A stretch of 64,000 nucleotides of DNA from Bacteroidales bacterium (GTDB lineage: Bacteria; Bacteroidota; Bacteroidia; Bacteroidales; WCHB1-69): assembly GCA_045600905.1 (NCBI GenBank), contig JAZRYT010000179.1, positions 777 through 64,776 of the forward strand, read 5' to 3'. Below are positions 102 through 54,160 of the stretch, one piece after another. Both the position numbers and the translations under genes were made by a program. The notes beneath the pieces were generated by a model. It saw only the letters and a list, made by a program, of their open reading frames with translations, was not told the origin of the DNA and searched no databases. How positions within the stretch are numbered: position 1 is the stretch's first letter; every line of letters begins with the position of its first letter.

Positions 102-129
102 GGTTTAAGGTTTAAAGTTTAAAGTAATT
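102..129 (+). repeat. Heptamer array GGTTTAA GGTTTAA AGTTTAA AGTAATT
   Basis: Read directly. It begins 5 nt after the TAG at 95-97. Confidence 0.9.
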
Positions 130-180
130 CCTCTTATCATCTACCCATCTTTCTTAGTTTCTCATTTCACACTATTCATT

Positions 181-1326
181 ATGAAAAACATTTTCATCTC
201 ATTATTGTTAGTTGGCGTTTGCGTATTGGGTTTCGCGCAGGCAAACGTCTATAGACTGCCGTTAGACAGCGGCAAGACCGTCAAGGGAAGCACTTTCAGC
301 TATATGCTGCCTTCCACTTCTCTGAAAGTCACAGTGAAAGTCACCAAGGTTCGTGAAATCAAAGGCTATTACGCCGACTACGCGGAGAGTCTTCTTGGAT
401 TGAAGAATGTCATTTCCGAGAACCGCACATATTACAAAATCAAAGACGTCAGCATCGAGCCTATTGCCTGTCCGGACGCTAGGGAATGCTATTTGGTCAA
501 GCTTTCCGGCAAACAGATCAAGGACAACTATCTAACATCCTTAACCGCGCAACCTTTTGATGCGAATCATACAAACGAGGTCCGCTGCTACACCACCTCC
601 ACAACGCCAATTCCCAATTTCTTCAAGAACTACTCCGACCCGACCTATACGGAGATGGAGGATTCGTTTGTAGAGACCAAAATCATCGACGGTGTTGTCA
701 CGCAAGTGCCTTCCAACCGCACGAAGCTGGTTTCCAAATCCAACAACCAGAAGGCACAGGAAGCTGCCGATGCCATTGGCCGAAGTCGCAAAGACCAATA
801 CAACCTTGTGGCCGGCGAGCAGGAAACCGCCTATTCCGCAGAAGCCTTGAACAAAATGCTGGCCGAGCTCAAACAATGGGAGGAAAACTATCTCAACCTC
901 TTCACAGGACTCGTTCTGGAAGATGAAATCTCCTACGTTTTCTACGTTGACGAAAATTCACCATTTGGCGACGATTTCGAATACAACCTCCCCATCTTCT
1001 CTTTTGACACAAAGACCGGTTTGAAAATCAATGAGGATTATAGTTATAGCGACAAGTCCAACGACTCCTACATCCTCAACTTCGACCCCGTCTATAAAAC
1101 CAGTGAAATTGACACAGCCTTAGCCAGCGCACATCAAGGACAAAAGGGTGCCAAATGTAATGGATATTTCTACCGCAGACCTATGCCTGTGAAAATCAAG
1201 ATGCTGTACAACGAAAACGATGTCTATGATTTCGGCATCATCAACATGTACCAATTCGGCAGAATCCAATCCTTGTCTCCGAACCAAGACAAGTTGAAAA
1301 TCAGTGATTTCGGATTTGTCTATTAG
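181..1326 (+). CDS. Hypothetical secreted protein (possibly DUF4831-like)
   Basis: 381-aa ORF with an ATG start and signal peptide MKNIFISLLLVGVCVLGFAQA. The DUF4831 resemblance is from memory only. Confidence 0.6.
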   Translation: MKNIFISLLLVGVCVLGFAQANVYRLPLDSGKTVKGSTFSYMLPSTSLKVTVKVTKVREIKGYYADYAESLLGLKNVISENRTYYKIKDVSIEPIACPDARECYLVKLSGKQIKDNYLTSLTAQPFDANHTNEVRCYTTSTTPIPNFFKNYSDPTYTEMEDSFVETKIIDGVVTQVPSNRTKLVSKSNNQKAQEAADAIGRSRKDQYNLVAGEQETAYSAEALNKMLAELKQWEENYLNLFTGLVLEDEISYVFYVDENSPFGDDFEYNLPIFSFDTKTGLKINEDYSYSDKSNDSYILNFDPVYKTSEIDTALASAHQGQKGAKCNGYFYRRPMPVKIKMLYNENDVYDFGIINMYQFGRIQSLSPNQDKLKISDFGFVY

Positions 1327-1421
1327 TGATTTGCGAACAGTGAGCTACAAACTGGAATTTGAAATGTTGAACTCATTGTTCTTTGGGTATTTGCATTTTA
1401 GTTTTAAAGAAGAATTTTGAT

Positions 1422-1925
1422 ATGAAAAGATATTTGGTTTTCTGTTTGCTTTTGTCCACAACGGTTCTCTTTTCCGGTTGTTCCAACCGCGAAGTCAACA
1501 AGCTCAAACGTCAGATGAAGACTTTAGCCAAAGAGTATTTGAAGGACAACGACATCTCCCAATACGACTCCCTCAACATCGAATGTGTAGATACGCTGAC
1601 AGAGCTCGGCTATGCAAAACTCACCTCAGAGTTGCTTGCCAATATGGAAGAGGCCTATGAGATGCAAATGGCTCAACCGGCCGATGACGCGACCATCAAC
1701 GAGCTTAACGCCAATCTAAATGAAATTTCCAGCGTGGAAAGCGAATTTGAAGAACTGATTGACAACGCCGAATTAAAGACATCCGGTATCCTTCTATTTA
1801 TGGTCACCGGCACTTTCGTTGACAAAAACAAAGACAAGCAGGAATTTATGTTCCTCGTCAATCCGGACAAAAAGACGCTACACGTTTTGGACCCATTTGG
1901 CAACAACCTGCTACCCCATGAATAA
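1422..1925 (+). CDS. Hypothetical lipoprotein
   Basis: The internal ATG at 1422 gives MKRYLVFCLLLSTTVLFSGC, a signal peptide plus lipobox Cys. The track ORF from 1383 uses a non-ATG start. Confidence 0.6.
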   Translation: MKRYLVFCLLLSTTVLFSGCSNREVNKLKRQMKTLAKEYLKDNDISQYDSLNIECVDTLTELGYAKLTSELLANMEEAYEMQMAQPADDATINELNANLNEISSVESEFEELIDNAELKTSGILLFMVTGTFVDKNKDKQEFMFLVNPDKKTLHVLDPFGNNLLPHE

Positions 1926-1990
1926 TGGAGGATTAAGGAATAAGGAACATACAATGTTACACAAGAGGTTTCTTTAAACCTTAAAACTGT

Positions 1991-2068
1991 TTTGGAGACG
2001 GTGCTTAAATGTTTTGGAGACGGTGCAGTGCACCGTCTCTACGATGAAAATACAAATATATTGGAAAA
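1991..2068 (+). repeat. REP-like palindromic element (one partial plus one full copy)
   Basis: A partial copy TTTGGAGACGGTGC (1991-2004) precedes the full copy. The full-copy hairpin is GAGACGGTGC-AGT-GCACCGTCTC (2017-2039), followed by TACG...TATTGGAAAAC. Confidence 0.85.
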
Positions 2069-2084
2069 CTTTAAACCTTAAACC
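2069..2084 (+). repeat. Heptamer units CTTTAAA CCTTAAA CC (reverse complement of the 102-129 type)
   Basis: Read directly. It lies between the REP-like element and the ATG at 2093. Confidence 0.8.
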
Positions 2085-2092
2085 AATACTCA

Positions 2093-3046
2093 ATGCTTTT
2101 CCCGTGGGGCGACGCGCGCCGTTTTCATTCTTACAACATCTTCTTAAAACAGCAATTCGGCGGTCGGATGCAGAAGCTGACCCTGGATGCCGGTTTCACC
2201 TGTCCCAACCGTGACGGGAAATGCGGGACAGGTGGGTGTTCCTATTGTCTCAACGATGCCTTCAATCCCAGTTACTGCCATCCAGCCAAGAGCATCACCG
2301 AGCAGCTGACCGAGGGTATGGCCTTTCATCAGCACAGGAGCAGGAATCTGCGGGGACACCTCGCCTACTTTCAGGCATTTTCCAACACTTACGCGCCTTT
2401 AGAGAAATTGCAGACGCTGTACGAAGAGGCGCTCCGCGTTCCCAGCATTCAAGGCCTCATCATTGCCACACGTCCAGACTGCATAGACGAGCCGCTGTTG
2501 GACTACCTACAGGAACTTTCCGAGCAGACATACGTTGCGTTGGAAATCGGCATAGAAAGCTGTCACGACATGACATTACAGCGCATCAACCGAGGCCACG
2601 ACCTCGCGTGCGCGATACAAGCCATTGAGCAGGCAGACGCCCATCAGATTCCCGTCGGCACGCACCTCATCTTTGGTTTGCCCGGCGAACAGCCCGAGCA
2701 GTGGCTGGAAGATATCGCCCTTATCAACAGCCTTCCCATCCACAGTCTTAAATTCCACCAATTGCAGATAATCAAGGGCACCCGTATGGAAGCGGAGTAC
2801 AAGGAAAATCCGAACGATTTTCCTCCGTTACCTTTCGATTTTTATACTGATTTTCTAGTGCAATACCTTGAGCGTTTGCGCGCCGACATCGTCATTGAGC
2901 GATTTGCCAGCGAGGTTCCTGCCCGATATCTGGCGTTTTCCAACTGGGAACACCTACGCTACGATGTCCTCCTCCAAACTTTAGAACAGAAATTGGAAGC
3001 CACAGACACATGGCAAGGGAAATACGATAATGCTGAAATTCGATAA
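2093..3046 (+). CDS. TIGR01212-family radical SAM protein
   Basis: The N-terminus DAGFTCPNRDGKCGTGGCSYC and the overall length (317 aa) match the YhcC/TIGR01212 radical SAM pattern. Confidence 0.85.
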   Translation: MLFPWGDARRFHSYNIFLKQQFGGRMQKLTLDAGFTCPNRDGKCGTGGCSYCLNDAFNPSYCHPAKSITEQLTEGMAFHQHRSRNLRGHLAYFQAFSNTYAPLEKLQTLYEEALRVPSIQGLIIATRPDCIDEPLLDYLQELSEQTYVALEIGIESCHDMTLQRINRGHDLACAIQAIEQADAHQIPVGTHLIFGLPGEQPEQWLEDIALINSLPIHSLKFHQLQIIKGTRMEAEYKENPNDFPPLPFDFYTDFLVQYLERLRADIVIERFASEVPARYLAFSNWEHLRYDVLLQTLEQKLEATDTWQGKYDNAEIR

Positions 3047-3080
3047 CAGCTGTGCTGTACAAATATTTATTCCCTACCCT

Positions 3081-5048: not shown

Positions 5049-5086
5049 ATTTTTTTTCAATGATTTCCCATTCTCCTATCACGTCA

Positions 5087-5232
5087 TCACCACCACATCA
5101 CCCCCAGATTGCATCTGGGGGCTAACGATGGAACCCTTCCAGAGTTCAACACCATAATTACCCACACTCATTCATTATTCATTATTCATTATTCATTGTT
5201 CATTGTTCATTATTCATTATCCATTGTTTCAC
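5087..5232. repeat. Direct repeat copy 1 (about 146 bp): hairpin CCCCCAGA-TTGCA-TCTGGGGG (5101-5121) plus a TTCATTA/TTCATTG heptamer array (5171-5226, 8 units)
   Basis: Aligns by eye with 5507-5639 at about 85% identity outside the heptamer copy-number difference. Confidence 0.9.
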
Positions 5233-5496
5233 GTCCTCAATTCTAGCCTTGTAACGTGCGATTTGGCCTTCGATAAAATCCTCACTGAACTTGGCATCGC
5301 AAAATCCATTGCCGCGTGCAACGTAGGATGGATCGTCCAAATCATCCTCCACATCATAATAATTTTGAAGATATTGTTGGTTCATTTGCAGCAATTCCTG
5401 CAAACCTCCTTTAGGCAATTCCACCATTTCGCCATCACTATATCGATACATCATTGTTGAATTTATATTATTACAAATTACCACATTATTCATCAT
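5200..5496 (-). CDS. Small acidic hypothetical protein (84-98 aa)
   Basis: ATG at 5496; an alternative start at MMYRY is at 5454. No recognisable family. The 3' end lies inside a heptamer array and the gene is bracketed by a roughly 140-bp direct repeat. Confidence 0.45.
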   Translation of the reverse strand: MMNNVVICNNINSTMMYRYSDGEMVELPKGGLQELLQMNQQYLQNYYDVEDDLDDPSYVARGNGFCDAKFSEDFIEGQIARYKARIEDVKQWIMNNEQ

Positions 5497-5506
5497 TCAT
5501 TGTTTT

Positions 5507-5639
5507 TCACCAACACATTCCACCCAGATTGCATTTGGGGCTAACGATGGAACTCTTCCAGGGTTCAACGCCATAATTCCCCCCACACATTCATTATTCA
5601 TTATTCATTGTTCATTATTCATTATCCATTATTTTTCAC
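5507..5639. repeat. Direct repeat copy 2 (about 133 bp): hairpin CCCAGA-TTGCA-TTTGGG (5523-5539) plus a heptamer array (5590-5631, 6 units)
   Basis: Second copy of the 5087-5232 element. It overlaps the 3' end of the lipid kinase gene. Confidence 0.9.
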
Positions 5640-6512
5640 CATCACATTCAAGTTATGCGGGAGGATTTTGATTTCAAAATTTTTAGGGAATATTATTGGT
5701 TCGCCATCAATGTTGACGACCGCCTCTGTCGGTCGTTTCACCACAATCTTTTCCGCTTTGAAATCCGTAAAATATTTGGAATGGTTCAGTTTTTCCAACA
5801 TCATTTGGGAAGCCACTAACGGAGCAATCCCGAGCGGCGGACGATTCAGGACACAGGTATCCAACAATCCGTCACACAAATCCGAATGGGGGGCTATTAC
5901 CGCGTTGTACCCAAACTGGTTGGAGTTCGCGAATGATATCAGCAGCGGGCTGCACTCGACGGTCATAGCGTCATCGAACGTCAGCACATATTTCTGCGGC
6001 TCGAAATGGATGTAGTTTTCCAAAGCGTATTTCGCATAGGAGAGAAAACCCCTGCGCGAATCGTTGGAGAAATCGAAAGCCGTTTGCGCATCCAGACCAA
6101 TGCCTGCAATACTTACAAAGGGCACGTCATTAACGGCCGCTGTATCCATTGCAATCACACGGTGGTCATTCAACACCTTGAGCGCGTCTTTCGGTCTTAA
6201 GGGCAAATGCAGGCAACGCGCCAAGCCATTGCCCGAACCGTATGGAATCAGCGCCATTGCCACTTCCGTGCCGATCAGACTCTGCGCAATCTCGTTAATC
6301 GTACCATCCCCACCTACGGCGGCCACCACATCGAATTTGTCAACAACTGCCTGCTGCGCCAACTCTTTAGCGTGCCCACCTCGTTCCGTATAGACAATCT
6401 CGCATTCATATCGAGATTTATCGATGACATCTCTCACCAACGTGGGGAAATTCTCTTTTTTATGATGTCCTGAGATAGGATTTACAATAAATAAAATGCG
6501 CTTGAGAGCCAT
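5622..6512 (-). CDS. Diacylglycerol kinase family lipid kinase (YegS/BmrU-like)
   Basis: N-terminus ILFIVNPISG and the GGDGT motif (AAVGGDGTINE); 296 aa. Confidence 0.85.
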   Translation of the reverse strand: MALKRILFIVNPISGHHKKENFPTLVRDVIDKSRYECEIVYTERGGHAKELAQQAVVDKFDVVAAVGGDGTINEIAQSLIGTEVAMALIPYGSGNGLARCLHLPLRPKDALKVLNDHRVIAMDTAAVNDVPFVSIAGIGLDAQTAFDFSNDSRRGFLSYAKYALENYIHFEPQKYVLTFDDAMTVECSPLLISFANSNQFGYNAVIAPHSDLCDGLLDTCVLNRPPLGIAPLVASQMMLEKLNHSKYFTDFKAEKIVVKRPTEAVVNIDGEPIIFPKNFEIKILPHNLNVMVKNNG

Positions 6513-6522
6513 TCAATACTAT

Positions 6523-6554
6523 TATTAAATCATTAAATTATTAAATTATTAAGA
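6523..6554. repeat. Octamer array TATTAAAT CATTAAAT TATTAAAT TATTAAGA
   Basis: Read directly, immediately upstream of the lipid kinase start (minus strand). Confidence 0.85.
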
Positions 6555-6667
6555 AATTATACCAACTCTTGAAACCTGTTTCGACGCGGCAAGCGAATGC
6601 AAAGGCACACTTGTTTGGCTTTGCTGAGCTGCCAGAAGAATATGAACGCAGTGAATAAACTTGTAAC

Positions 6668-7105
6668 CTAGTCATCCATACGGAGGAACTGACCGGCGGC
6701 ATCAAAGGTCAGTTCAAGGCCGTTGCTCAATTCGATATCCCAATTTTTCCTGTTCTTATCCACTTGGCAGATATAGGAATCATAAAAATTGGATGTTATA
6801 TACTGGGGAATGTCTTTAGGCAAAAGATCGATAACGCTCTGCGGAACAGGTTGGTGGTTGCAATCGACATTATTCCAATCACCCTTTCTATCAAACTCCA
6901 CCTCGTAGCCGTTGGAGAATTTCACTTCAAAGCCGTCATCATCCTGTTTGATATATGAGATCTGCAAATCTGCGAAATGCTTTTTCACAAAGGATTGTGC
7001 CACGCTCGGCAGTTTTTCGAACTTGATGAAACTGTCATTGGATTCGCAAGCGGTAACGATGATAGCCGTAATAATCAAGGCCAAGGAGACTAAAACTTTT
7101 TTCAT
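6668..7105 (-). CDS. PepSY-like (DUF2874-type) lipoprotein
   Basis: The ATG at 7105 gives MKKVLVSLALIITAIIVTAC (lipobox). It has the duplicated PepSY-like pattern (...GFEVKFSNGYEVEFDRKG... / ...WDIELSNGLELTFDAAG...). A TATTTTTG box lies 31 nt upstream. Confidence 0.7.
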   Translation of the reverse strand: MKKVLVSLALIITAIIVTACESNDSFIKFEKLPSVAQSFVKKHFADLQISYIKQDDDGFEVKFSNGYEVEFDRKGDWNNVDCNHQPVPQSVIDLLPKDIPQYITSNFYDSYICQVDKNRKNWDIELSNGLELTFDAAGQFLRMDD

Positions 7106-7135
7106 AATGAATACTAAGTTAAAATTCAAGGGCGG

Positions 7136-7143
7136 CAAAAATA
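7136..7143 (-). promoter_or_regulatory. -7 box TATTTTTG (Bacteroidota sigma-A consensus TAnnTTTG)
   Basis: Perfect consensus match 31 nt upstream of the ATG at 7105. Confidence 0.5.
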
Positions 7144-7234
7144 CACAATTTACAATGAACAATGTACAATAAATTTTTTCGAGCCGTGCGCTCATCACCC
7201 ATCCCAAATTACTCTAATTAAGACGAATTATTTT

Positions 7235-7304
7235 GTGAACAGTGAGTTGTGACCTGTGAAGAGTGAGCAGCGAGTGTTCATTGTCAATTGTCAATTGCTG
7301 AACC
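7235..7304 (+). repeat. Degenerate heptamer array, 10 units (GTGAACA GTGAGTT GTGACCT GTGAAGA GTGAGCA GCGAGTG TTCATTG TCAATTG TCAATTG CTGAACC)
   Basis: Read directly. TGA occurs at 7236, 7243, 7250, 7257 and 7264, covering all three frames. Confidence 0.9.
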
Positions 7305-7531
7305 GCTACGAAAAGTGGACGTTTGTTTGACGACGGACCTAGTTTAAGAGGTAGATATAACATCCTTGAACAATGTAAATTGCACCTTGAACAAAGTGAA
7401 TAACCCTAATACCTGTTTCGACGCAGCAAGCGAAAGCAAAGACACAACTTGTTTGGCTTTGCCGAGCTGCAAGGAGAGTCTGAACAAAGCTGGAAAAGTA
7501 CATAAACAAATCGGAACGGCAAAAAAAATCG

Positions 7532-7539
7532 TATTTTTG
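7532..7539 (+). promoter_or_regulatory. -7 box TATTTTTG upstream of parC
   Basis: Perfect consensus match 28 nt upstream of the ATG at 7567. Confidence 0.5.
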
Positions 7540-7566
7540 CAGCCTTTTGAAAAAAACCGAACCTAT

Positions 7567-10278
7567 ATGGCAGATAAGACTACCGGCATCAATGAAGAGA
7601 ACCTTGTAAACGAGGAAGAACAGAACTCGGATCTCCATAAAGTCATTTTCGTACAATCGATGTATCGAGAATGGTTTTTGGACTACGCCTCTTACGTTAT
7701 CTTGGATCGTGCCTTTCCGGATGTATATGACGGTTTGAAGCCCGTACAGCGCCGTATTCTCCACTCTATGGACGAGTTGGAGGACGGGCGTTTCAACAAA
7801 GTGGCCAACATCGTCGGCAACACGATGAAATACCACCCGCACGGCGACCAGTCCATCTACTCCGCTTTGGTCAGTTTAGGGCAGAAGAACTACGTGATTG
7901 ACACGCAGGGTAACTGGGGTAACATTCTCACGGGAGACCCAGCTGCCGCACCGCGTTACATTGAGGCACGCCTTTCCAAATTCGCCTTGGACGTGGTGTT
8001 CAACCACAAGACGACAGACTGGCAGGTTTCCTATGACGGTCGAAACAAGGAACCCATCGCACTACCCATCAAGTTCCCGTTGCTTTTAGCGCAAGGCGTG
8101 GATGGCGTGGGCGTGGGTATGTCCACGAAAATTCTGCCTCACAACTTCAACGAGCTAATAGACGCCTCCATCCATATTTTGAAAGGCGAGGATTTTGAAA
8201 TATTCCCAGACTTTCCGACTGGCGGCACTGCGGATGTCAGCCGCTATTGCGATGGTGCCCAGGGAGGAAAAGTACGTAACCGTGCCAAAATCAACATTGT
8301 TGACAACAAAACCTTAGTTATCACTGAGATACCCTACGGCACCACGACCGGCAAACTCATTACGGAATCCAAGAACTCCATCACGGCCGCCGTCGATATG
8401 GGCAAGCTCAAAGTCAAGAAGATTGACGACAACACGGCAGAGCAGGTGGAGATCTACCTTCACCTGCAACCCGGTGTTTCCCCGGACCAGACCATCGACG
8501 CGCTCTACGCTTTCACTGATTGCGAGATCACCTACTCCACCAACGCCTGCGTCATCTGGAACGGTCACCCCGTGTTCACCAACGTGAAGGAGATTCTCAA
8601 GATCAACACCGAGAACACGTTGAACCTGCTGCGCCGCGAATTGGAAATCGAGTTGGAGGAATTGGGCAACAAATGGCACAAGATTTCTTTGGAAATCATC
8701 TTCTTCGACAAGGGCATCTACAAGGAATTGGAAAACAGATCTGCCGAATCCTGGGATGTGCAAATCGACAACATCGAGCACGCATTTGATCCCTACCGAC
8801 ATCTTTTCAAACAGGAAATCACCCGCGACGACGTGCTGGCACTTTGCGAAAAGCCCGTCCGAAAGATTTCCAAATTCGACATCAAAAAGGCCGAACAGGA
8901 TATTGCCGACATCGAGCTCAACATCGAGGAGGTTCAAAACCACCTCGACCACATCGTTGACTTCGCCATCAACTATTTCCGCCAGTTGAAGAAGAAATAC
9001 GGCGCCGCCCATCCGCGTCTGACCGAAATCAAGAATTTCGACACCATTGTCGCATCCACCGTGGCTGTCGCCAACCAGAAACTGTACGTTGACAAGAAGG
9101 AAGGATTTATCGGCACCTCCCTCAAGAAAGATGAGAATGTGGAATACGTCTGCGACTGTTCAGACTTGGACGAGCTCGTCATTTTCCACGAAGACGGCAA
9201 GTTCCTCATCACGAAAGTGACAGACAAGAAATTCGTCGGCAAGAACATCTTGCACGTCGAAGTCTTCAAGCGTGGTGACGACCGCCACATCTACAACCTC
9301 GCCTACACCAACGGCGCAGGCGGTGCCACCATGGTCAAACGATTTGCCGTAGGCGGTGTTTCCCGTGACAAGGAATACGACGTCACCAAAGGCAAAGCCG
9401 GGTCCAAAATACTCTACTTCACCTCCAATCCGAATGGTGAAGCTGAAGTCATCCGCGTAAAACTGAAACCGAAAGCCAAACTCAAAAAGAAGGAGTTCGA
9501 CTACGACTTCAGCAAACTGGCGGTCAAGAGCCGTTCCGCTTTGGGCAACCTGCTGACACACTACCCTATCGCGTCCATCACGCTTGGACAAAAGGGCGTT
9601 TCCACCCTCAGCGCCATCAACATCTACTTTGAAGAATCCGTAATGCGCCTCAACACCGACGAAAGAGGCACGTTGCTCGGCGCTTTCAAAGAGGATGATA
9701 AAATCATAACGCTGTACAAATCCGGCAACTACCGTATTACCGGTTTTGAGCTGAACACCCATTTTGATGACGACTTGGGCATCATCAAGAAATGGAACAA
9801 AAAACAGATTATCACAGCCGTCTATTATCAAAAGAAAGAGGACAAATACTTCATCAAGCGCTTTGTTCCCGATACTTTTAACAAAAAAATAGACTTCATA
9901 CCCGAGGACGGAGCATCTTCCATCATCGGCATATCCCTGGATTATCTACCTCAAATCAAGGTGGTTTACAGAGAGAAGAAAGCAGAAGAAGACAGTGTGG
10001 ACATCATCTCCTGCGCCGACTACGTGGAACCAATGTCTTTCCGTGCCCGCGGCAAACGTATCAGCTTCCCGAACATTAAGAAAGTAACCTTCCTCGAACC
10101 TCTGCCTTACGACGAACCGGAAGAAGAACCCGAAGAGGAAGTTGAAGAAATTGACGAATCCCAAATCGAGAGCGTTGACGACGCCATCGCCAAAGATATT
10201 TTCAAAGACATCACCGTGGAGAAATCGGATGATTCCGGCCCTGCAGACGAAAGCGGCGACCAACTGACACTGTTTTAG
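7567..10278 (+). CDS. parC: Type IIA topoisomerase subunit A, ParC-like (DNA topoisomerase IV subunit A)
   Basis: GyrA/ParC signatures are present: LKPVQRRILH, YHPHGD and the active-site region AAPRYIEARL. I see no QRRGGKG GyrA box, which favours ParC over GyrA. The ATG at 7567 is 28 nt after a TATTTTTG box; the ORF-track start at 7366 is rejected. The C-terminal tail is acidic. Confidence 0.8.
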   Translation: MADKTTGINEENLVNEEEQNSDLHKVIFVQSMYREWFLDYASYVILDRAFPDVYDGLKPVQRRILHSMDELEDGRFNKVANIVGNTMKYHPHGDQSIYSALVSLGQKNYVIDTQGNWGNILTGDPAAAPRYIEARLSKFALDVVFNHKTTDWQVSYDGRNKEPIALPIKFPLLLAQGVDGVGVGMSTKILPHNFNELIDASIHILKGEDFEIFPDFPTGGTADVSRYCDGAQGGKVRNRAKINIVDNKTLVITEIPYGTTTGKLITESKNSITAAVDMGKLKVKKIDDNTAEQVEIYLHLQPGVSPDQTIDALYAFTDCEITYSTNACVIWNGHPVFTNVKEILKINTENTLNLLRRELEIELEELGNKWHKISLEIIFFDKGIYKELENRSAESWDVQIDNIEHAFDPYRHLFKQEITRDDVLALCEKPVRKISKFDIKKAEQDIADIELNIEEVQNHLDHIVDFAINYFRQLKKKYGAAHPRLTEIKNFDTIVASTVAVANQKLYVDKKEGFIGTSLKKDENVEYVCDCSDLDELVIFHEDGKFLITKVTDKKFVGKNILHVEVFKRGDDRHIYNLAYTNGAGGATMVKRFAVGGVSRDKEYDVTKGKAGSKILYFTSNPNGEAEVIRVKLKPKAKLKKKEFDYDFSKLAVKSRSALGNLLTHYPIASITLGQKGVSTLSAINIYFEESVMRLNTDERGTLLGAFKEDDKIITLYKSGNYRITGFELNTHFDDDLGIIKKWNKKQIITAVYYQKKEDKYFIKRFVPDTFNKKIDFIPEDGASSIIGISLDYLPQIKVVYREKKAEEDSVDIISCADYVEPMSFRARGKRISFPNIKKVTFLEPLPYDEPEEEPEEEVEEIDESQIESVDDAIAKDIFKDITVEKSDDSGPADESGDQLTLF

Positions 10279-10290
10279 TGAAAACGGTGT

Positions 10291-10310
10291 AATGTAATGC
10301 AATGTAATGT
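10291..10310 (+). repeat. Pentamer array AATGT AATGC AATGT AATGT
   Basis: Read directly, 13 nt after the parC stop. Confidence 0.8.
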
Positions 10311-10416
10311 AGAGACGGGGCACTGCACCGTCTCTACGGCGAAATCGCCAACAAAATTGGAATTAGACGGTGCAGTGCACCGTCTCTACGGCGAAATCGC
10401 CAATGTATTGGAAAAC
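10311..10416 (+). repeat. REP-like palindromic element, two tandem copies of about 52 bp
   Basis: AGAGACGGGGCACTGCACCGTCTCTACGGCGAAATCGCCAA... followed by TTAGACGGTGCAGTGCACCGTCTCTACGGCGAAATCGCCAATGTATTGGAAAAC. A second small hairpin is GGCGA-AA-TCGCC. Confidence 0.9.
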
Positions 10417-10444
10417 TTGAAACTTGAAACCTGAAACTTGAAAC
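10410..10444 (+). repeat. Heptamer array GGAAAAC TTGAAAC TTGAAAC CTGAAAC TTGAAAC
   Basis: Read directly. The last unit supplies the TTG start of the cytochrome c peroxidase gene. Confidence 0.9.
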
Positions 10445-11538
10445 TCCCCAAGTACCTGACATATTGCCTACTCATCCTCCTCGTTTCCTCCTGCGTACAT
10501 CCCGTAGAGGACCCTACGCCTATGGACATTAGCATACCCTACGGTTTCCCCACGCGTTTGAACATTCCGGAAGACAATCCGATGACGGTGGAAGGTGTGA
10601 CTTTAGGCAAGCTTCTGTTTGATGACCCGCACCTTTGCGGCTATCTTGGTTCCGACCCCGACTCGCTGATGGCCTGCGCGACCTGCCACGTTCAAGCGCA
10701 CAACTACGACATCGGCACCGACAATCCTCGATTCCCCGACGGCATCGCACGTGGGCGAAGCACAGGAAAGCCTACCATCCACAATGTGATGCCGCTCACC
10801 AATTTAGTGTTCAACAACGAAGGTTACTTCTGGAACGGCAGCATCTGTCCGCAGAACCCCAATGCCAATCAGCGAAGCATAGAAGACATTGTCCGAATGG
10901 CCATCACCGCCGAAGACGAAATGTGTGGCACAGAGGCTTCCGCTGTGGCAGCCATACGCGCCGACAGCCGCTACCCCGAACTTTTCAAGAAAGCCTTCGG
11001 CTCGGAAGAAATCACGATGGAACGCATCGAAAAGGCCATTGCACAATACGTCCGCTCGCTCGTTTCCGGCCAGTCCAAATTCGACCGCTATCTGCAAGGA
11101 CAAGAGCAGCTCACCCCGCAAGAATTACACGGCTACATCCTCTTCACCACAGAAGAAGGTGCCGACTGCTTCCACTGCCACGGCAGTGACGGTTCTCCCC
11201 TATTTACGACCAATTTATTCTACAACAACGGTTTGGACAACGTCTTCACGGACACACACGACCGTTTTTCCTTCACCGGCAACGCGATGGACAGAGGCGC
11301 ATACCGCGCTCCCTCCTTACGCAATGTCGCCGTGTCGGCACCCTATATGCACGACGGCCGATTCAAAACTTTAGACGAAGTGCTGACTTTCTACAACGAG
11401 GGATTGCAGTATTCGCCCTACGTCAGCCCGCTAATGCACCACATCAACGATGGCGGCACTTTACTCTCCCCTTCGGACATTGCCGACCTAAAGGCATTCT
11501 TGAAGACACTGACCGACGACACCTACCTACAACCGTAA
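10438..11538 (+). CDS. Di-heme cytochrome c peroxidase (CCP/MauG family) lipoprotein
   Basis: Two CXXCH heme motifs (CATCH, CFHCH). The N-terminus MKLPKYLTYCLLILLVSSC is lipoprotein-like. The only possible start is TTG at 10438, because an in-frame TGA sits at 10432-10434. Confidence 0.8.
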   Translation: MKLPKYLTYCLLILLVSSCVHPVEDPTPMDISIPYGFPTRLNIPEDNPMTVEGVTLGKLLFDDPHLCGYLGSDPDSLMACATCHVQAHNYDIGTDNPRFPDGIARGRSTGKPTIHNVMPLTNLVFNNEGYFWNGSICPQNPNANQRSIEDIVRMAITAEDEMCGTEASAVAAIRADSRYPELFKKAFGSEEITMERIEKAIAQYVRSLVSGQSKFDRYLQGQEQLTPQELHGYILFTTEEGADCFHCHGSDGSPLFTTNLFYNNGLDNVFTDTHDRFSFTGNAMDRGAYRAPSLRNVAVSAPYMHDGRFKTLDEVLTFYNEGLQYSPYVSPLMHHINDGGTLLSPSDIADLKAFLKTLTDDTYLQP

Positions 11539-25912: not shown

Positions 25913-25961
25913 CGGCATTCATCATTCTACCGAACAACGGTCCCTAACCGGGACCTCATCA

Positions 25962-25989
25962 TTAATCATTAACCCTTAACCATTCTCCC
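25962..25989 (+). repeat. Heptamer array TTAATCA TTAACCC TTAACCA TTCTCCC
   Basis: Read directly, downstream of the stop at 25910-25912. Confidence 0.8.
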
Positions 25990-26021
25990 TTTTACACCTT
26001 TACACCTTTCACCTTTTTTTA

Positions 26022-27127: not shown

Positions 27128-27176
27128 GGATTAGGTAATAGGTAATAGGTAATAAGTATTAGGGTTTAGAATTTAA
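27128..27176 (+). repeat. Heptamer array, 7 units (GGATTAG GTAATAG GTAATAG GTAATAA GTATTAG GGTTTAG AATTTAA)
   Basis: It fills the whole gap between the TAA at 27125-27127 and the ATG at 27180. Every unit ends in TAG or TAA. Confidence 0.9.
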
Positions 27177-27179: not shown

Positions 27180-28271
27180 ATGAAAAGATTATTTTTATTG
27201 TTGGCAGCCTGTCTGCCTATATTCGCGTGGGCACAAAAAGAATACACCTTCACCACTTATCGCAATGTGGTCAACAACGGCTACAACTTCTGGATATCGC
27301 TGCCGGACGACTATGAGGTCAAGAAGAACGAAATGCCCGTTGTTGTCTTCCTTCACGGGAACAGCTTGTGCGGCTCCGACCTCAACAGAGTGCGTCGTTA
27401 TGGCTGTTTGGATGCCATTTCGATGGGGCGTGACATTGACGCTATGGTTATCGCACCGCAAAACCCCGGTGGTCCCTGGAATCCCACACGCATTATGAAT
27501 GTGCTCAACTGGGTGCAGGAACATTTCGCGATGGACACCAACCGCATTTACGTTATTGGAATGAGTCTGGGCGGCTACGGCACATTCGACTTTGTGGCCA
27601 CGTATCCCGAAAAATTCGCAGCCGCAATGGCACTCTGTGGCGGCAGCTCACGCAAAGATTTCTGCGGTTTGAACAAGGTTCCGCTTTGGATCATCCACGG
27701 AACCGCCGACAGAGACGTTTCCATCAGCCAATCCGAGCGCATTGTGAACGCTATGAAGAACTGCGGTCCCACCAACTTGCTGCGCTTTGACAGATTCAAA
27801 GGCATCAACCACTCTCAATTAGCTAAAATGTTCTATTTGCCAGAGACTTACGAATGGCTGCTCAGCCACTCCAAGGCCGACTCCTCCCGACACGTCAATA
27901 TGGATGTGAATATCACGGTTGCCTCTTTGGGACAAGCTTACCAAAATATCAATCGCACGGCCAACACCATAAAAGTTGTAGATAAATACAACACCACCGT
28001 ACCCCAAAACAAGGATATTGACACGGCCAATCTTTCTGATGAGGCACTTGCCTCCCTCGCCAACGCGACTGTTCCGGAAAAGAAAACGCCCGCACCTGCA
28101 ACCACCCCAAAACCGGCGCCCAGCAAACCTGCCGTCCATACGGTTCGCAGCGGAGACACACTATCCGCCATAGCACGAAGATACCATACCACGGTGGAAA
28201 AGCTCTGCAAAATCAATCACATAAAAGAAACCAGTATTCTCTCTTTGGGGCAAAAAATCAAATTGCGCTAA
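27180..28271 (+). CDS. Alpha/beta-hydrolase (esterase/peptidase-like) fused to a C-terminal LysM domain
   Basis: Signal peptide; nucleophile-elbow-like GMSLGG; HGTADRDV; a Pro/Thr-rich linker; and a LysM signature HTVRSGDTLSAIARRYHTTVEKLCKINHIK...LGQKIKL. Confidence 0.7.
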   Translation: MKRLFLLLAACLPIFAWAQKEYTFTTYRNVVNNGYNFWISLPDDYEVKKNEMPVVVFLHGNSLCGSDLNRVRRYGCLDAISMGRDIDAMVIAPQNPGGPWNPTRIMNVLNWVQEHFAMDTNRIYVIGMSLGGYGTFDFVATYPEKFAAAMALCGGSSRKDFCGLNKVPLWIIHGTADRDVSISQSERIVNAMKNCGPTNLLRFDRFKGINHSQLAKMFYLPETYEWLLSHSKADSSRHVNMDVNITVASLGQAYQNINRTANTIKVVDKYNTTVPQNKDIDTANLSDEALASLANATVPEKKTPAPATTPKPAPSKPAVHTVRSGDTLSAIARRYHTTVEKLCKINHIKETSILSLGQKIKLR

Positions 28272-40246: not shown

Positions 40247-40249
40247 CCT

Positions 40250-47824: not shown

Positions 47825-47841
47825 AGGATAATGTTTGGGCG

Positions 47842-47960: not shown

Positions 47961-47994
47961 CATCGTCAAAAATTATTACTATAGAGATCTAAGG

Positions 47995-49068: not shown

Positions 49069-49124
49069 ATACAATTGATTTTAAGAATTTTACATTAAGG
49101 CTTCACTTTTCTATGGAAGCGGCG

Positions 49125-49132
49125 CAAAAATA
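49125..49132 (-). promoter_or_regulatory. -7 box TATTTTTG upstream of kdd
   Basis: 57 nt upstream of the ATG at 49068. Confidence 0.5.
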
Positions 49133-49212
49133 GTTTTTTTTTCCAATTATCCAAAACCATTTTACGAGCATATCCTACAATTTTTTGTGATAACGGGACG
49201 AGGAACGTGGGA

Positions 49213-49268
49213 GGGTTAAGGGTGAATGATGAATGATAAAGGGTTAGTGATGAAGGGTTAGTGATGAA
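49213..49268. repeat. Heptamer array, 8 units (GGGTTAA GGGTGAA TGATGAA TGATAAA GGGTTAG TGATGAA GGGTTAG TGATGAA)
   Basis: Read directly, 14 nt downstream (minus sense) of the stop at 49282-49284. Confidence 0.9.
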
Positions 49269-49281
49269 TTCACTATTCTCG

Positions 49282-50043
49282 TTATCGTTTTCCCATAATG
49301 TAATTAGATATTTGTCGGTAAATGGTTTTCATTTCCTCGGAGGGCAACATCTGCAGATGTTTCTCCATCACGGCAGCATCTTTTCGGGCGGCCGGGCCAG
49401 TTTGAGCCATTGCAGGAGACATCCATTGCAACTTGTCCAACGTCTGCCTCATCAGGGGCAGCAGCATTTGGAAGTCCAGATTATCCGTTTTCAGAATATC
49501 ATCTGCCACATTTGCCATCGCGTTGCTGAAATTGCAGGCGAACACCGCCGCCAGATGCAGCACACCACGTTGTTCTTCGGAGATATCATACAGCTTGTCA
49601 GAGAGTTCCCGAGCCAACTGCCCGACCCTACATTTCCTTTCTCCGAGTGCATTATCTTCAATACACAAGGGGACTGTCATTTTCTCCATGTTTTCAGACT
49701 TCGTAAAGGTTTGAAGCGGATACAGCACGCCATAATTTTCCGCGTATCCTTGAAAGACATTTTGCGACACCGAGCCTGCCGTATGAAGAGCCACGGGCAG
49801 TTTGAAAGGAAGATCCGGCAATATGGCGGAATATGCGTCATCTTTGATGGAGAAGAGGTACATCTCGCAATTGGGATTGAGCTTCGACAAATCGTCTATA
49901 GCCTGCGCACCGATTTTGGAAGCCAGCGCTTGTGCGTGTTCCACGTTCCGGCTATAGACTTGTGCAATAGGAAATTCGGACGACTGGCGCAATTTTTGAG
50001 CCAGCCAATGGGCCACATTGCCCGAACCAATCAGAGCAATCAT
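49282..50043 (-). CDS. Rossmann-fold protein, DUF2520-type (putative NAD(P)-dependent oxidoreductase)
   Basis: MIALIGSGNVAHWLA (GxGxxA dinucleotide motif). The start ATG overlaps the upstream stop as TAATG. Confidence 0.6.
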   Translation of the reverse strand: MIALIGSGNVAHWLAQKLRQSSEFPIAQVYSRNVEHAQALASKIGAQAIDDLSKLNPNCEMYLFSIKDDAYSAILPDLPFKLPVALHTAGSVSQNVFQGYAENYGVLYPLQTFTKSENMEKMTVPLCIEDNALGERKCRVGQLARELSDKLYDISEEQRGVLHLAAVFACNFSNAMANVADDILKTDNLDFQMLLPLMRQTLDKLQWMSPAMAQTGPAARKDAAVMEKHLQMLPSEEMKTIYRQISNYIMGKR

Positions 50044-51707: not shown

Positions 51708-51728
51708 AATTCTCGAATAAAAGGGCGG

Positions 51729-51736
51729 CAAAAATA
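51729..51736 (-). promoter_or_regulatory. -7 box TATTTTTG upstream of the nucleoside kinase gene
   Basis: 22 nt upstream of the ATG at 51707. Confidence 0.5.
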
Positions 51737-51820
51737 CGAAAAAAGTTTCTGGGTTCAAATTTCAAGATTCGGGTTTTACAAACTTAAAAAACCGCTTTTC
51801 TCATAAGCACATTATTTTCG

Positions 51821-51828
51821 TATTTTTG
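51821..51828 (+). promoter_or_regulatory. -7 box TATTTTTG upstream of tcdA
   Basis: 42 nt upstream of the ATG at 51870. Confidence 0.5.
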
Positions 51829-51869
51829 CAGCCTTTTGGTAAAAACATGTTCAACACCAACATTCGTCT

Positions 51870-52610
51870 ATGCAACAAAACGTTAGAACTGAGGATGACT
51901 GGCAGACACGGACTGCCCTACTGATTGGCGAAGAGGGGCTTGCGAAGCTTTCCCGTGCGCACGTGCTGCAAGTCGGTTTGGGGGGTGTGGGTGCTTATAC
52001 CGCCGAGCAGCTCTGCCGTGCCGGTGTGGGAGAGATGACCATCGTGGATGCCGACACGGTTTCCGTCAGCAATCTGAACCGACAACTTCCCGCCCTGCGC
52101 TCCACCGTTGGGAAAAGCAAAGTACAGGTGATGGCCGAGCGTCTTTTGGACATCAACCCACAACTCAAGCTGCACTGCATAGAGGAATTCATCCGTGACG
52201 AACGTACCGCCGAAATATTGGATGCCGCCCCATACAGCTGCGTTTCCGATGCCATCGACACCCTTTCGCCCAAAGTCTATCTCATCTATCAGACATTGCA
52301 GCGGAACATCAAACTCGTGTCCGTGATGGGCGCAGGCGGCAAGATGGACCCCGGAAAAATCCAAATCGCGGACATATCCAAATCCTACAACTGCCACTTG
52401 GCCAAAACCGTCCGGAAAAGGCTCTACCGAATGGGTGTCCGCTCCGGCTTCAACGTCGTCTTCTCCACGGAGCTTGTTCCCGAAGAGGCCGTCGTAATCG
52501 AGAAAGACGAATCCATCAACAAACTCTCCACCGTCGGCACCATTTCCTATATGCCCGCCGTGTTCGGCTGTTTCGCCGCCTCCGCCGTCATCCAGGAACT
52601 GCTCAAATAA
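51870..52610 (+). CDS. tcdA: tRNA threonylcarbamoyladenosine dehydratase (ThiF/MoeB-family, TcdA/CsdL-like)
   Basis: VLQVGLGGVGAYTAEQLCRAGVGEMTIVDADTVSVSNLNRQ; 246 aa. Confidence 0.75.
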   Translation: MQQNVRTEDDWQTRTALLIGEEGLAKLSRAHVLQVGLGGVGAYTAEQLCRAGVGEMTIVDADTVSVSNLNRQLPALRSTVGKSKVQVMAERLLDINPQLKLHCIEEFIRDERTAEILDAAPYSCVSDAIDTLSPKVYLIYQTLQRNIKLVSVMGAGGKMDPGKIQIADISKSYNCHLAKTVRKRLYRMGVRSGFNVVFSTELVPEEAVVIEKDESINKLSTVGTISYMPAVFGCFAASAVIQELLK

Positions 52611-52621
52611 ACGCCCTTCGA

Positions 52622-52663
52622 CTTCATTTCATCATCAAAAATCACTATTTGCTATTCATCATT
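52622..52663 (+). repeat. Degenerate heptamer array (CTTCATT TCATCAT CAAAAAT CACTATT TGCTATT CATCATT)
   Basis: Read directly, between the tcdA stop and the MBOAT ATG at 52668. Confidence 0.6.
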
Positions 52664-52667
52664 CGCT

Positions 52668-54089
52668 ATGGTCTTCAGTTCCGCAATATTCCTTTTCCTC
52701 TTTCTCCCCGTGGTACTCGTTTTGTACTACGTGCTGCCGAAAAGTTGGCGGAACGGCATCCTGTTGGCGGCCAGTCTTTTGTTTTACAGTTGGGGCGAGC
52801 CTCTCTTCATAGCCATCCTTTTAGCATCCATCACCGTTGACTTCTTCATCGCAAAGAAAATGGGATGCGCGGAAAACCACACACGCAGAATATGGCTGGC
52901 CGTTTCCCTATTCGTCAACCTAGCGCTGCTCGCCTATTTCAAATACGCGAACTTCTTCATTGACAACGTTCAACATCTATACAGCCTTTTGGGATTAAAG
53001 CCCTTTTCGTGGCATACCGTCGCCCTGCCCATCGGCATCTCCTTTGTCACATTCCAAAAAATATCCTATATGGTGGATGTCTATCGCAACAACCACGAAC
53101 CTCAACGCCGCTGGGATCATCTTGCCCTGTACATCCTGATGTTTCCCCAACTCATCGCCGGCCCGATTATCCGCTACAAGGAGATTGCCGACCAGCTCAC
53201 AGACAGAAGCAACAACGACGCCATCGAGGACAGGCTTAACGGACTTTTCCGCTTTTTCATCGGCCTTTCCAAAAAGGTTCTAATTGCCAACGTATTGGCA
53301 CAGCAAGTGGATGCCATCTTTGCCACCTCGCCCGGCGAGCTTTCCTCCGGTTCCGCTTGGATAGGGATAATTGCCTACACTCTGCAGATTTATTTTGACT
53401 TTTCCGGCTACTCCGATATGGCGTTGGGGTTGGGTCGGATGTTCGGATTCCGATTCCCTGAGAATTTCAACTTCCCATACATCTCCCAAAGTTTTACGGA
53501 ATTCTGGCGTCGCTGGCACATCACTTTGGGCAATTGGATGAAGGACTACCTCTACATTCCTCTTGGCGGAAACCGCATCAACAAACGGCGCACGCTGTTG
53601 AACCTATTCATCGTCTTCCTTCTTTCCGGCTTATGGCACGGTGCCGCGTGGACGTTCGTGGTCTGGGGTCTCTATCACAGCCTTTTCCTCGTTTTGGACA
53701 AACTCGGACTTCAAAAACTACTAGCAAAATCCGGCAGGATTCCCGCCACCCTTCTGACTTTCCTCTTCGTGATGATCGGATGGGTGATCTTCCGCGCCGA
53801 CTCCCTACCCTACGCTTTCAACTACATCGCACGACTCTTCTCCTTCACATCCTGCCAGGACTTCATCCTCCTCGACACAAGATTCATCGTTATTCTCCTC
53901 ATAGCCATTTTGGCAGCATTCTCCGGCATCTTTTCCTCCATTGAAAGATATGCCAACTCCCTATTCGAGCACTCCCACACCAACCTTCGTTGGACGCTTA
54001 TCACCACACTCGTACTCCTACTCTACATTCTCAATGGCTCCGCCCTACTCGCCGGCGGACTAAATCCGTTTATATACTTTAGGTTTTAG
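52668..54089 (+). CDS. MBOAT family O-acyltransferase (AlgI/DltB-like)
   Basis: Polytopic; FSSAIFLFLFLPVVL...; FWRRWHITLGNWMKDYLYIPLGGNR; conserved His region SGLWHGAAWTFVVWG. Confidence 0.85.
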   Translation: MVFSSAIFLFLFLPVVLVLYYVLPKSWRNGILLAASLLFYSWGEPLFIAILLASITVDFFIAKKMGCAENHTRRIWLAVSLFVNLALLAYFKYANFFIDNVQHLYSLLGLKPFSWHTVALPIGISFVTFQKISYMVDVYRNNHEPQRRWDHLALYILMFPQLIAGPIIRYKEIADQLTDRSNNDAIEDRLNGLFRFFIGLSKKVLIANVLAQQVDAIFATSPGELSSGSAWIGIIAYTLQIYFDFSGYSDMALGLGRMFGFRFPENFNFPYISQSFTEFWRRWHITLGNWMKDYLYIPLGGNRINKRRTLLNLFIVFLLSGLWHGAAWTFVVWGLYHSLFLVLDKLGLQKLLAKSGRIPATLLTFLFVMIGWVIFRADSLPYAFNYIARLFSFTSCQDFILLDTRFIVILLIAILAAFSGIFSSIERYANSLFEHSHTNLRWTLITTLVLLLYILNGSALLAGGLNPFIYFRF

Positions 54090-54094
54090 GAGCT

Positions 54095-54115
54095 GGTTTC
54101 AGGTTTCAAGTTTCA
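54095..54115 (+). repeat. Heptamer array GGTTTCA GGTTTCA AGTTTCA
   Basis: It starts 6 nt after the TAG at 54087-54089. It has the same layout as 102-129 with one base changed per unit. Confidence 0.85.
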
Positions 54116-54132
54116 AGTATAATAGCGTTTCC

Positions 54133-54160
54133 TTAATCATTAATCATTCATCATTAACCA
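54133..54160 (+). repeat. Heptamer array TTAATCA TTAATCA TTCATCA TTAACCA
   Basis: Read directly. It ends 3 nt before the ATG at 54164. Confidence 0.85.

Follow-up and report, generated by a model that had tools for sequence, protein, structure and literature searches.

To our knowledge, bacterial tandem arrays of 7-nucleotide (nt) units were already described in 1990 and are still unexplained; G-quadruplex formation is, as far as we know, the sole structural mechanism proposed for them so far. Mazel et al. are said to have described in 1990 the short tandemly repeated repetitive (STRR) heptamer families that are dispersed in the noncoding DNA of heterocystous cyanobacteria. Here we describe heptamer arrays in the spacers of an uncultured member of the Bacteroidales, starting from a 64,000-nt stretch of its metagenome-assembled genome (MAG), which we call the window (positions 777 to 64776 of contig C179 in genome G000, an assembly of 3.13 Mb in 190 contigs with 45% GC). 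These arrays and the STRR families are both dispersed tandem heptamers; they differ in unit sequence and in phylum. The Bacteroidales arrays are probably lineage-specific long simple-sequence repeats (LSSRs) with heptanucleotide (and some octanucleotide) units, and belong to the same class as the heptamers of Xanthomonas, Nostoc/Anabaena (STRR), and Beggiatoaceae.

The closest described repeats are the heptamers GGGAATC of Xanthomonas and GGGGAYT of Nostoc PCC 7120, which were read as G-quadruplex formers (Rehm 2015, PMC4692102). That study reported 70-75 inverted pairs, overlap with stop codons, and rarity in divergent spacers. The G-rich strand was the sense strand at ≤50 bp after a stop and the antisense strand at ≤50 bp before an open reading frame (ORF); no link to S23p/intervening-sequence (IVS) genes was drawn (PMC4692102). 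According to the account given in PMC4679880 of the survey by Mrazek, Guo and Shah (2007), heptanucleotides are the commonest class of prokaryotic LSSRs, and a 7-nt register of the polymerase was proposed. MacGregor (2015, PMC4679880) described TAACTGA repeats in marine Beggiatoaceae, some Cyanobacteria, and five Bacteroidetes. These repeats, in a constant orientation termed "forward," lie a few nucleotides ahead of starts; one Flexibacter array, which stands right after a stop, is reversed (PMC4679880).

Genes were called with a purpose-built codon-usage ORF caller, which gave 2439 genes and a coding density of 88%; 1703 internal spacers, 313 kb in total, underlie the spacer statistics. The chance level for arrays was taken from order-3 Markov simulations of the same spacers. 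The spacers held 331 arrays of period 7 and 152 of period 8, versus 6 to 14 and 8 to 19, respectively, in the simulations, and spacer arrays of periods 5 and 6 were at the chance level. Copy number had a median of 4 and a maximum of 19. Lag autocorrelation across the 1703 spacers peaked at 7, 14, 21, and 28 nt (0.301 at lag 7 versus 0.270 ± 0.001 simulated); coding DNA had the 3-nt codon period only. Arrays were about 37-fold denser in spacers (101 per 100 kb) than in coding DNA (2.7 per 100 kb). One-third of the spacers of ≥40 nt held an array of period ≤16, and arrays made up 7% of spacer bases. LSSRs are recognized by head-to-tail units of 5 to 11 nt that are longer and more frequent than expected from composition and, for unit lengths indivisible by 3, by a strong preference for noncoding DNA, and both were found here. 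The whole-unit changes between close strains that also mark the class are described below.

That unit types recur between loci, as the original prediction had claimed from the window, was borne out across the genome: the AAACYTK family (GGTTTCA, GGTTTAA, AGTTTCA) accounted for 128 of the 331 period-7 arrays. The other main families were AATGAAT, TAGGTAA, CAGTGAR, ACAATTR, TTAACCC, and the octamer ATCRCATT. Per 10 kb, there were 14 period-7 arrays in co-directional spacers, 12 in convergent spacers, and 4.7 in divergent spacers; octamer arrays were scarce in convergent spacers. An array edge lay ≤5 nt from a stop codon, or overlapped it, in 110 cases versus 31.9 expected from random placement in the same spacers (3.4-fold), and 38 arrays abutted start codons versus 27.4 expected from random placement (1.4-fold). 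Genes that end inside an array are common (e.g., gaacaaTGAacaatgaataatgaat). The prediction had called for a genome-wide scan, and had named a lack of enrichment at gene ends, a lack of orientation bias, and equal periodicity in shuffled sequence as outcomes that would speak against it. None of these outcomes occurred: periodicity was far above chance, and both the enrichment at gene ends and an orientation bias were present. These uncultured Bacteroidales reportedly lie outside the 2007 survey by Mrazek and coworkers, which is said to describe neither the strand rule nor the cassette link that are set out below.

The orientation of the arrays depended on the gene end that they adjoin. Among arrays ≤10 nt from a stop and >40 nt from a start, the sense strand had more G than C by 85:7, and among arrays ≤40 nt from a start and >10 nt from a stop, it had more C than G by 130:15; arrays in mid-spacer were oriented about 50:50. 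The polarity was also present in convergent (21:6) and divergent (16:2) spacers and in individual families. After stops, AGGTTTC was oriented 18:0, and before starts, its complement, GAAACCT, was 5:0; AAGTTTC was 12:0 after stops and 7:1 on the complement side; TAGGTAA was 13:0; and the octamer ATCACATT was 16:0 before starts. In a relative of the same genus that has other units (G018; TGGTTAT/ATAACCA and AAGACTT/AAGTCTT), G exceeded C by 60:13 after stops and C exceeded G by 23:4 before starts. Mathematically, the post-stop and pre-start halves of this pattern, published as two half-rules, are a single geometric rule: whichever gene end an array adjoins, G is abundant and C scarce on the strand that leads 5′ to 3′ out of that gene into the spacer. 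Leader arrays also avoided ATG on the sense strand (65:8). Outside the arrays, leaders were G-poor (GC skew of −0.13 to −0.19), and DNA downstream of stops had no GC skew. A strand bias of replication or transcription was considered and rejected as the cause of the polarity because both orientations coexist within single spacers, where the direction of transcription and replication is one and the same.

The arrays resemble the repeats of Rehm (2015) in being intergenic, in lying mostly in co-directional spacers, and in obeying the same strand rule, both in this genome and in G018. They differ from them in their AT-rich units, the coexistence of dozens of families, the rarity of same-family inverted pairs within a spacer, and the phylum. 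Because the position and strand rule are already published, the genome is a further member of a described class, one that is dense in arrays, AT-rich, and not of the G-quadruplex kind. A G-quadruplex takes at least four tracts of three or more Gs; the dominant units GGTTTCA, GGTTTAA, AATGAAT, TAGGTAA, CAGTGAA, and ACAATTR have no such tract, and only minor families such as AGGGTTT and GGGTTAA do. The G-quadruplex idea is weakened because AT-rich units that cannot supply these tracts obey the published placement and strand rule. As in the class of 5- to 11-nt LSSRs of the 2007 survey, in the account of it in PMC4679880, heptamers dominate, the arrays are intergenic, and their phylogenetic spread is sporadic; an origin by slippage was proposed for that class. 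As with the TAACTGA repeats, the spacers also hold other heptamer repeats. TAACTGA, however, is one unit found across phyla, whereas here many lineage-specific units occur and the bias is strongest at stops rather than starts. The simple-sequence repeats of contingency (phase-variation) loci in Haemophilus, Neisseria, and Helicobacter are placed so that their length switches expression, either early in an ORF, toward its 5′ end, or between the boxes of a promoter. The arrays share with these repeats unit-sized copy changes between strains; unlike them, they are rare in coding DNA and in divergent spacers, which are rich in promoters, and cluster at stops.

To follow the arrays among close relatives, we used the MBOAT protein of the window (52668-54089) in a homologue search, followed by contig look-ups. 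This gave five conspecific contigs (L263 and L268 to L271; 94 to 98% DNA identity over 3 to 17 kb) and two sister-species contigs (L264 and L265; 85 to 87% protein identity); exact-protein look-ups with two window proteins gave no match. A close-strain comparison via ParC loci was dropped, the locus in L053 being without upstream synteny. In the two sister-species contigs, the four orthologous spacers had no arrays and no seed of the units found here. The ThiF>MBOAT spacer was 18 nt in the sister species and 57 nt here and in conspecific strains; the MBOAT>AlgX spacer was 29 or 46 nt versus 74 nt here; the PRK/ThiF spacer was 111 to 112 nt versus 162 nt; and the spacer on the DUF2520 side was 136 to 142 nt versus 213 nt. 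The spacer after parC was 4 nt in a relative with an 86% identical ParC, and here it holds about 160 nt of arrays and hairpins.

The original prediction had also proposed that copy number be compared across strains, and conspecific strains did differ by whole units. The number of units in the GGTTTCA array (54095-54118) was 3 in the window, rose to 6 in L268 and to at least 11 in L263, and was zero in the sister species; the TTAATCA array (54133-54162) had 4 units here and 11 in L268 (+49 nt). Length differences inside arrays in L268 were +21, +42, and +7 nt. Arrays accounted for five of the six indels of ≥5 nt across about 47 kb of conspecific alignment. Because the sister junctions are array-free and copy numbers differ between strains, the arrays are recent, unstable arrivals in tight operon junctions that change by whole units. 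Judging from the sequence comparisons, they would be dispensable for expression of the flanking genes.

Four short-read contigs terminated inside an array, and the same arrays were found in five independent assemblies from other samples. The recent, unstable insertions explain why, in MAGs of these rumen Bacteroidales, contig breaks fall at spacers. Across 17 related genomes (60 to 500 kb was sampled from each of 16 relatives), the density of period-7 arrays ranged from 0.1 to 3.2 per 10 kb, and the units were lineage-specific. ParC loci of other Bacteroidales MAGs were equally patchy for arrays; the ParC relatives were uncultured Bacteroidales MAGs throughout, chiefly from rumen and gut. The arrays can be used to study the invasion of compact genomes by such DNA.

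We favor the following account of how the arrays arose. A small set of unit families would be implanted beside gene ends as young, noncoding filler DNA. Once implanted, an array would expand and contract by whole units, presumably through slipped-strand mispairing or unequal exchange, and would persist only where a 7-nt change in length is harmless, which is likely to be just past a stop or in the leader of the next gene. On the mRNA, an array would thus read as G, U, and A in the trailer that follows a stop and as C, A, and U, with little G and no ATG, in the leader that precedes a start. Polarity would be kept by selection against leaders that are G-rich, structure-prone, or ATG-bearing, combined with an inverted-pair (hairpin) build of the parent elements. 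An inverted-pair element is the same on both strands; therefore, selection of its G-poor arm at a start would fix the G-rich opposite arm. Such parent elements would therefore also explain why trailer arrays are skewed despite unskewed ordinary trailers. Leaders in the Bacteroidales have no Shine-Dalgarno sequence, and G-poor leaders and avoidance of ATG would fit what is known of such leaders in the Bacteroidota. The arrays are presumably transcribed and neutral for expression. A built-in handedness of the insertion process may be a bolder alternative for the polarity.

Several points weigh against this account. Slippage, which the original prediction had offered as one of three readings, comes nearest to the evidence of the three and is right but incomplete: it explains the whole-unit changes between strains and the absence of arrays in sister species, but not the seedless families or the strict strand rule; pure local slippage is insufficient because a few families recur at >100 sites, at which the sister-species sequence has no seed. 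Because ordinary trailers are unskewed, an extra assumption is needed for the stop side of the strand rule. In the window, ten gene-end arrays comply with the rule, and the array at 49213-49268 is an example of an exception. We found no explanation for the stop codons next to certain arrays: the stop is TAG for 24 of the 30 RGTTTMA arrays that abut one and for 8 of the 12 CAGTGAR arrays that do so, versus a genome-wide TAG usage of 24%. In both families, the register of the repeat unit extends over the AG of this stop. Finally, the codon-usage caller is crude and placed some start codons wrongly; the statistics are robust to misplaced starts because stop positions are exact.

The other two readings in the original prediction were an all-frame translational backstop and a protein-binding array. 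In a backstop, stop-bearing heptamers would catch read-through or frameshifted ribosomes at the gene end. The 3.4-fold excess of arrays that abut or overlap stops, the many genes that end within an array, and the enrichment of TAG ahead of stop-abutting arrays would suit such a function. That the stops of most arrays lie in the sense of the preceding gene, as had also been claimed, held only weakly: among 158 post-stop arrays, 88 had stops in all three frames in the sense direction versus 61 in the antisense direction, and 33 had no sense stop at all. More frames bore stops in the sense direction in 73 arrays and in the antisense direction in 46 (P = 0.017). However, in arrays for which stop content and G>C called for opposite strands, orientation followed G>C by 34:6 (P = 8 × 10^-6). 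The commonest post-stop units, AGGTTTC and AAGTTTC, were oriented 30:0 in 30 arrays and yet have no sense stop; their complement has TGA in every frame. Stop codons have G and never C, so the G>C rule yields the excess of sense stops free, and stops in all frames are a by-product of polarity. The mirror-image rule at starts is unrelated to termination, and the arrays are missing in sister species. With the conflict test and the stop-less dominant units against it, a backstop is not the organizing principle of the arrays, and we regard it as very unlikely.

A broader role as functional cis-elements we consider unlikely as well. Leader arrays would then be unstructured, G-poor landing pads that aid the initiation of translation in the absence of a Shine-Dalgarno sequence (with binding by ribosomal protein S1 or of cold-shock type), and trailer arrays would serve past the stop for binding, for processing, or against Rho. 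Such roles would account for the very strict orientation relative to gene ends and for leader arrays that mirror the general G-depletion of leaders and avoid ATG. In addition, binding of S1, Csp, or CsrA was proposed for the TAACTGA repeats before starts, with heptamer binding by CspB cited (MacGregor 2015, PMC4679880), and most of the repeats studied by Rehm (2015, PMC4692102) are transcribed. But the same operon junctions function with array-free spacers of 18 to 46 nt in the sister species, copy number varies from 3 to at least 11 among strains, dozens of unrelated units coexist and differ between species of one genus, and the enrichment at start codons is slight. A protein-binding array is disfavored because the units are lineage-specific and orthologous sites are array-free. 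Pairing between arrays, as a 5′-3′ panhandle of one gene or a hairpin in one spacer, was also considered and rejected; complementarity was not above chance. That the arrays reflect chance AT-rich composition or an assembly artefact is next to impossible. The spacers are AT-rich and short-read contigs frequently break within arrays, but the simulations produced a small fraction of the 331 period-7 arrays, the same arrays recur in the five independent assemblies, and similar arrays occur in other genomes.

A further reading, which we regard as possible and put forward tentatively, is that the arrays are arms or arm remnants of selfish hairpin cassettes. These would be akin to the ORF-bearing IVSs of 23S rRNA, and their loop may carry a PF05635 (S23p, four-helix-bundle) gene. 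The reading concerns origin and spread and is compatible with slippage after implantation; the fixed polarity, with G prevailing in the 5′ arm and C in the 3′ arm whichever strand is read, would be a built-in handedness of the element. The 23S rRNA IVSs with an ORF in Coxiella and Leptospira (S23p = PF05635) have a 28-bp terminal stem that is cut by RNase III (PMC4990558).

There were seven PF05635 hits in genome G000. Very divergent paralogues stand between ordinary genes, with heptamer or hexamer arrays on both sides, at C157:4094-4453, C64:6956-7345, C11:2794-3153, C159:17377-17673, and C189:139887-140252; a sixth, longer copy (C54:43105-43563) is of the single-copy orthologue type and has no arrays. 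Four of the five strong-class genes (those on C157, C64, C11, and C159) are bracketed by inverted arrays of one family (GTGAACA/TTCACTG, AGTTTAA/CCTTAAA, ACAATTR/TTGTAAAT, and AATGAAT/ATTCATT, respectively). The bracket families CAGTGAR, GTTTAAA, ACAATTR, and AATGAAT also fill ordinary spacers, and a similar bracket was found at 8 of 10 PF05635 loci in relatives. The flanks of 46 loci shared a median of 9 inverted 7-mers versus 3 for 2187 control genes (P = 2 × 10^-11). Because raw 7-mer sharing in 200-nt flanks is noisy (the chance level is about 2 to 3, and repetitive extragenic palindromes [REPs] contribute), comparisons of distributions alone were used. The left (upstream) arm was G-rich by 33:3 at 36 loci, and two cassettes were predicted to fold so that their arms pair in a long terminal stem enclosing the ORF (z = −4.2 and −6.4).

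Within the genus, the orthologous spacer between serC and serA occurs in three states. It is empty (14 to 26 nt) in G006 and G012, holds arms-only hairpins in G008, G002, and G005, and bears an ORF in G000, G007, and G011/G004, with three PF05635 lineages that have their own arms. The arms-only form of G002 and the ORF-bearing form of G000 are of the same arm family. Together with these three states at a single orthologous site, the link to PF05635 cassettes offers a candidate origin for the repeats that can be tested. Across 17 genomes, PF05635 copy number was correlated with array density (Spearman's ρ = 0.77, P = 3 × 10^-4, with no phylogenetic correction); within the genus alone, the coefficient was about 0.67 by hand calculation, also uncorrected for phylogeny. 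An arm-core-arm module, (GTTTCA)n-AGTATAATAGCG-(TTAAYCA)n with a conserved core, occurs at six or more junctions, including window positions 54090-54163 and sites on C31, C107, and C160 (two copies).

Other observations count against an origin of the arrays in cassettes. Inverted array pairs in the same spacer numbered 3 of 172 in this genome, versus about 4% of random pairs, and in most spacers the array is solitary. The genome has about 5 ORF-bearing copies versus about 460 arrays, and ORFs might enter pre-existing hairpins instead of bringing arms with them. The correlation of PF05635 with density, as noted, is uncorrected for phylogeny, and there is no associated transposition enzyme. Non-array sequence was held in common with other spacers in 41% of array-bearing versus 35% of array-free spacers. 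With these values, the idea that arrays are parts of larger dispersed elements was rejected as a general explanation, although it is true for a few (the AGTATAATAGCG module and the ~100-nt element described below). An origin by a reverse transcriptase (RT) or telomerase-like mechanism was rejected as well, since the genome's only RT lies in an ordinary diversity-generating retroelement without a PF05635 neighbor. In this retroelement (C21:20194-25228), the RT (371 amino acids [aa]) is accompanied by a 154-aa HRDC-like accessory gene and by a target with a C terminus of lectin/FGE fold.

The cassettes resemble IVSs in that a PF05635 gene is bordered by complementary, stem-forming termini, as was seen at C157, C64, C11, and C159 and in relatives, and in their sporadic, selfish-looking distribution. 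In contrast to IVSs, which are located in helix 25 or 45 of 23S rRNA, all cassettes seen were between protein-coding genes, such as serC and serA, and their termini are heptamer arrays; the arrays of the window enclose no such ORF. A bolder version of the cassette reading, which we consider doubtful, is that bacterial heptamers in general (STRR, Xanthomonas, Nostoc, Beggiatoa, and Bacteroidales) are arms or footprints of one class of selfish hairpin cassette whose autonomous form has the PF05635/S23p gene. Handedness would then record how arms are made or inserted, and not simply selection on mRNA; its source might be templated addition of units to 3′ ends at a break or a protein that recognizes the arms. 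A literature search found no paper linking PF05635 to heptamer repeats, and the link is apparently unpublished. The SerC protein is 100% identical between G000 (C157:2937-4052) and G006 (L273, C41:23479-24594), two genomes of one genus whose other genes have only about 65% DNA identity; this could reflect recent transfer or contamination of a bin.

In the window, arrays were called with Tandem Repeats Finder (TRF; score of ≥30), and the sequence was also read directly. Of the 14 array sites listed in the original prediction, 12 were recovered by TRF, and direct reading agreed. Calls of period 7 were made at 100-125, 2066-2084, 5170-5225, 5589-5633, 10413-10445, 25960-25984, 27132-27163, 54096-54118, and 54133-54162; the other periods were 8 (6521-6552), 5 (10288-10311), and 14, or twice 7 (49234-49268). 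Three TRF arrays were absent from the earlier list (1929-1947, 7152-7170, and 25991-26016). Rfam 15 at gathering score matched no RNA family anywhere in the window.

The first array, of GGTTTAA type, spans 100-129, starting 2 nt past a TAG stop and lying 52 to 58 nt ahead of the ATG at 181; with five Gs and no C on the plus strand, it fits the rule. Its layout after TAG is indeed shared by the array at 54095-54115, as had been claimed. An AGGAATA array (1929-1947; six Gs, no C) lies 3 nt past the stop of gene 1383-1925, and an AAACCTT array (2066-2084; no G, five Cs), the complement of the type at 100-129, lies 8 nt ahead of the ATG at 2093. Both fit the rule. Eight units of ATTCATT (5170-5226) overlap the stop end of a minus-strand ORF (5200-5496), and six more (5589-5633) overlap the stop of a minus-strand gene of the diacylglycerol kinase family (5622-6512). 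In the sense of the minus-strand ORF, the first reads AATGAAT, with G over C, and both arrays fit. A direct repeat of about 140 bp (window 5087-5639), each copy of which has a terminal ATTCATT array, brackets this 98-aa ORF. Eight nucleotides from the start of the same gene (5622-6512) is an octamer array of four ATTATTAA units (6521-6554), which has nearly no G or C, so that the rule is inapplicable. An ACAATGA array (7152-7170) stands at the start end of minus-strand gene 6668-7162. In the divergent spacer ahead of parC (7235-7304), six GTGAnnn units are followed by three of TCAATTG; TRF called 7280-7297 only, and the GTGAnnn register is plain by reading.

Past parC, a pentamer array of 4.8 AATGT units (10288-10311) begins 9 nt after the stop, and 4.7 units of GAAACTT (10410-10445; C>G, in accord with the rule) stand immediately ahead of the next gene start. 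On the start side of its spacer, at 25960-26016, a CATTAAC array is followed by an octamer array of TTTACACC; neither has a G, with seven and nine Cs, respectively. The TAGGTAA-type array at 27128-27176 (nine Gs, no C), seen by TRF and by reading, occupies the entire gap from the TAA stop to the ATG at 27180. The exception to the rule, at 49213-49268, is a composite of GGGTTAA and TGATGAA that adjoins the stop of minus-strand gene 49282-50043. Its unit count and order vary among conspecific strains, and the sister species have no array there. The TTCATCA-like stretch ahead of the ATG at 52668 (52622-52663) is degenerate and was not called by TRF, yet it is a 39-nt insertion relative to the sister species. 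The last junction has three GGTTTCA units (54095-54118) that begin 5 nt past the TAG stop of the MBOAT gene, a unique core on the plus strand, AGTATAATAGCG(ttcc), at 54116-54132, and four TTAATCA units (54133-54162) that end 1 nt ahead of the ATG at 54164. The core separates the two arrays.

REPs and the bacterial interspersed mosaic elements (BIMEs) built from them are imperfect palindromes with a conserved 5′ GTAG and are associated with a REP-associated tyrosine transposase (RAYT). Like REP/BIME sequences, the arrays are abundant, short intergenic repeats after genes, and this genome has GTAG hairpins and a RAYT-like gene. The arrays themselves are direct tandem repeats without an internal palindrome, which sets them apart. 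The REP-like hairpins with a 5′ GTAG (window 1995-2050 and 10311-10400) have the form GTAGAGACGG..CCGTCTCTAC, and elsewhere GTAGGGACGCA..TGCGTCCCTAC; they often adjoin heptamer arrays. The RAYT-like gene (HxH, Y1-type) lies between strong inverted repeats at C68:38723-39173 of G000.

A dispersed element of about 100 nt (TTTCGACGCAGCAAGCG...GTGAATAAACTTG) occurs in the window at 6568-6670 and 7411-7485. The genome has at least 10 copies with 88 to 92% identity, and one copy was found in G006. The element has GAAACYT units on both flanks, and it is either an insertion into arrays, resembling a MITE (miniature inverted-repeat transposable element), or a source of arrays. One of its copies is crossed by the long parC ORF that begins at TTG 7366 (window 7366-7560). 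Because homologues align only from about residues 53 to 68, the true start of parC is probably near 7520-7570.

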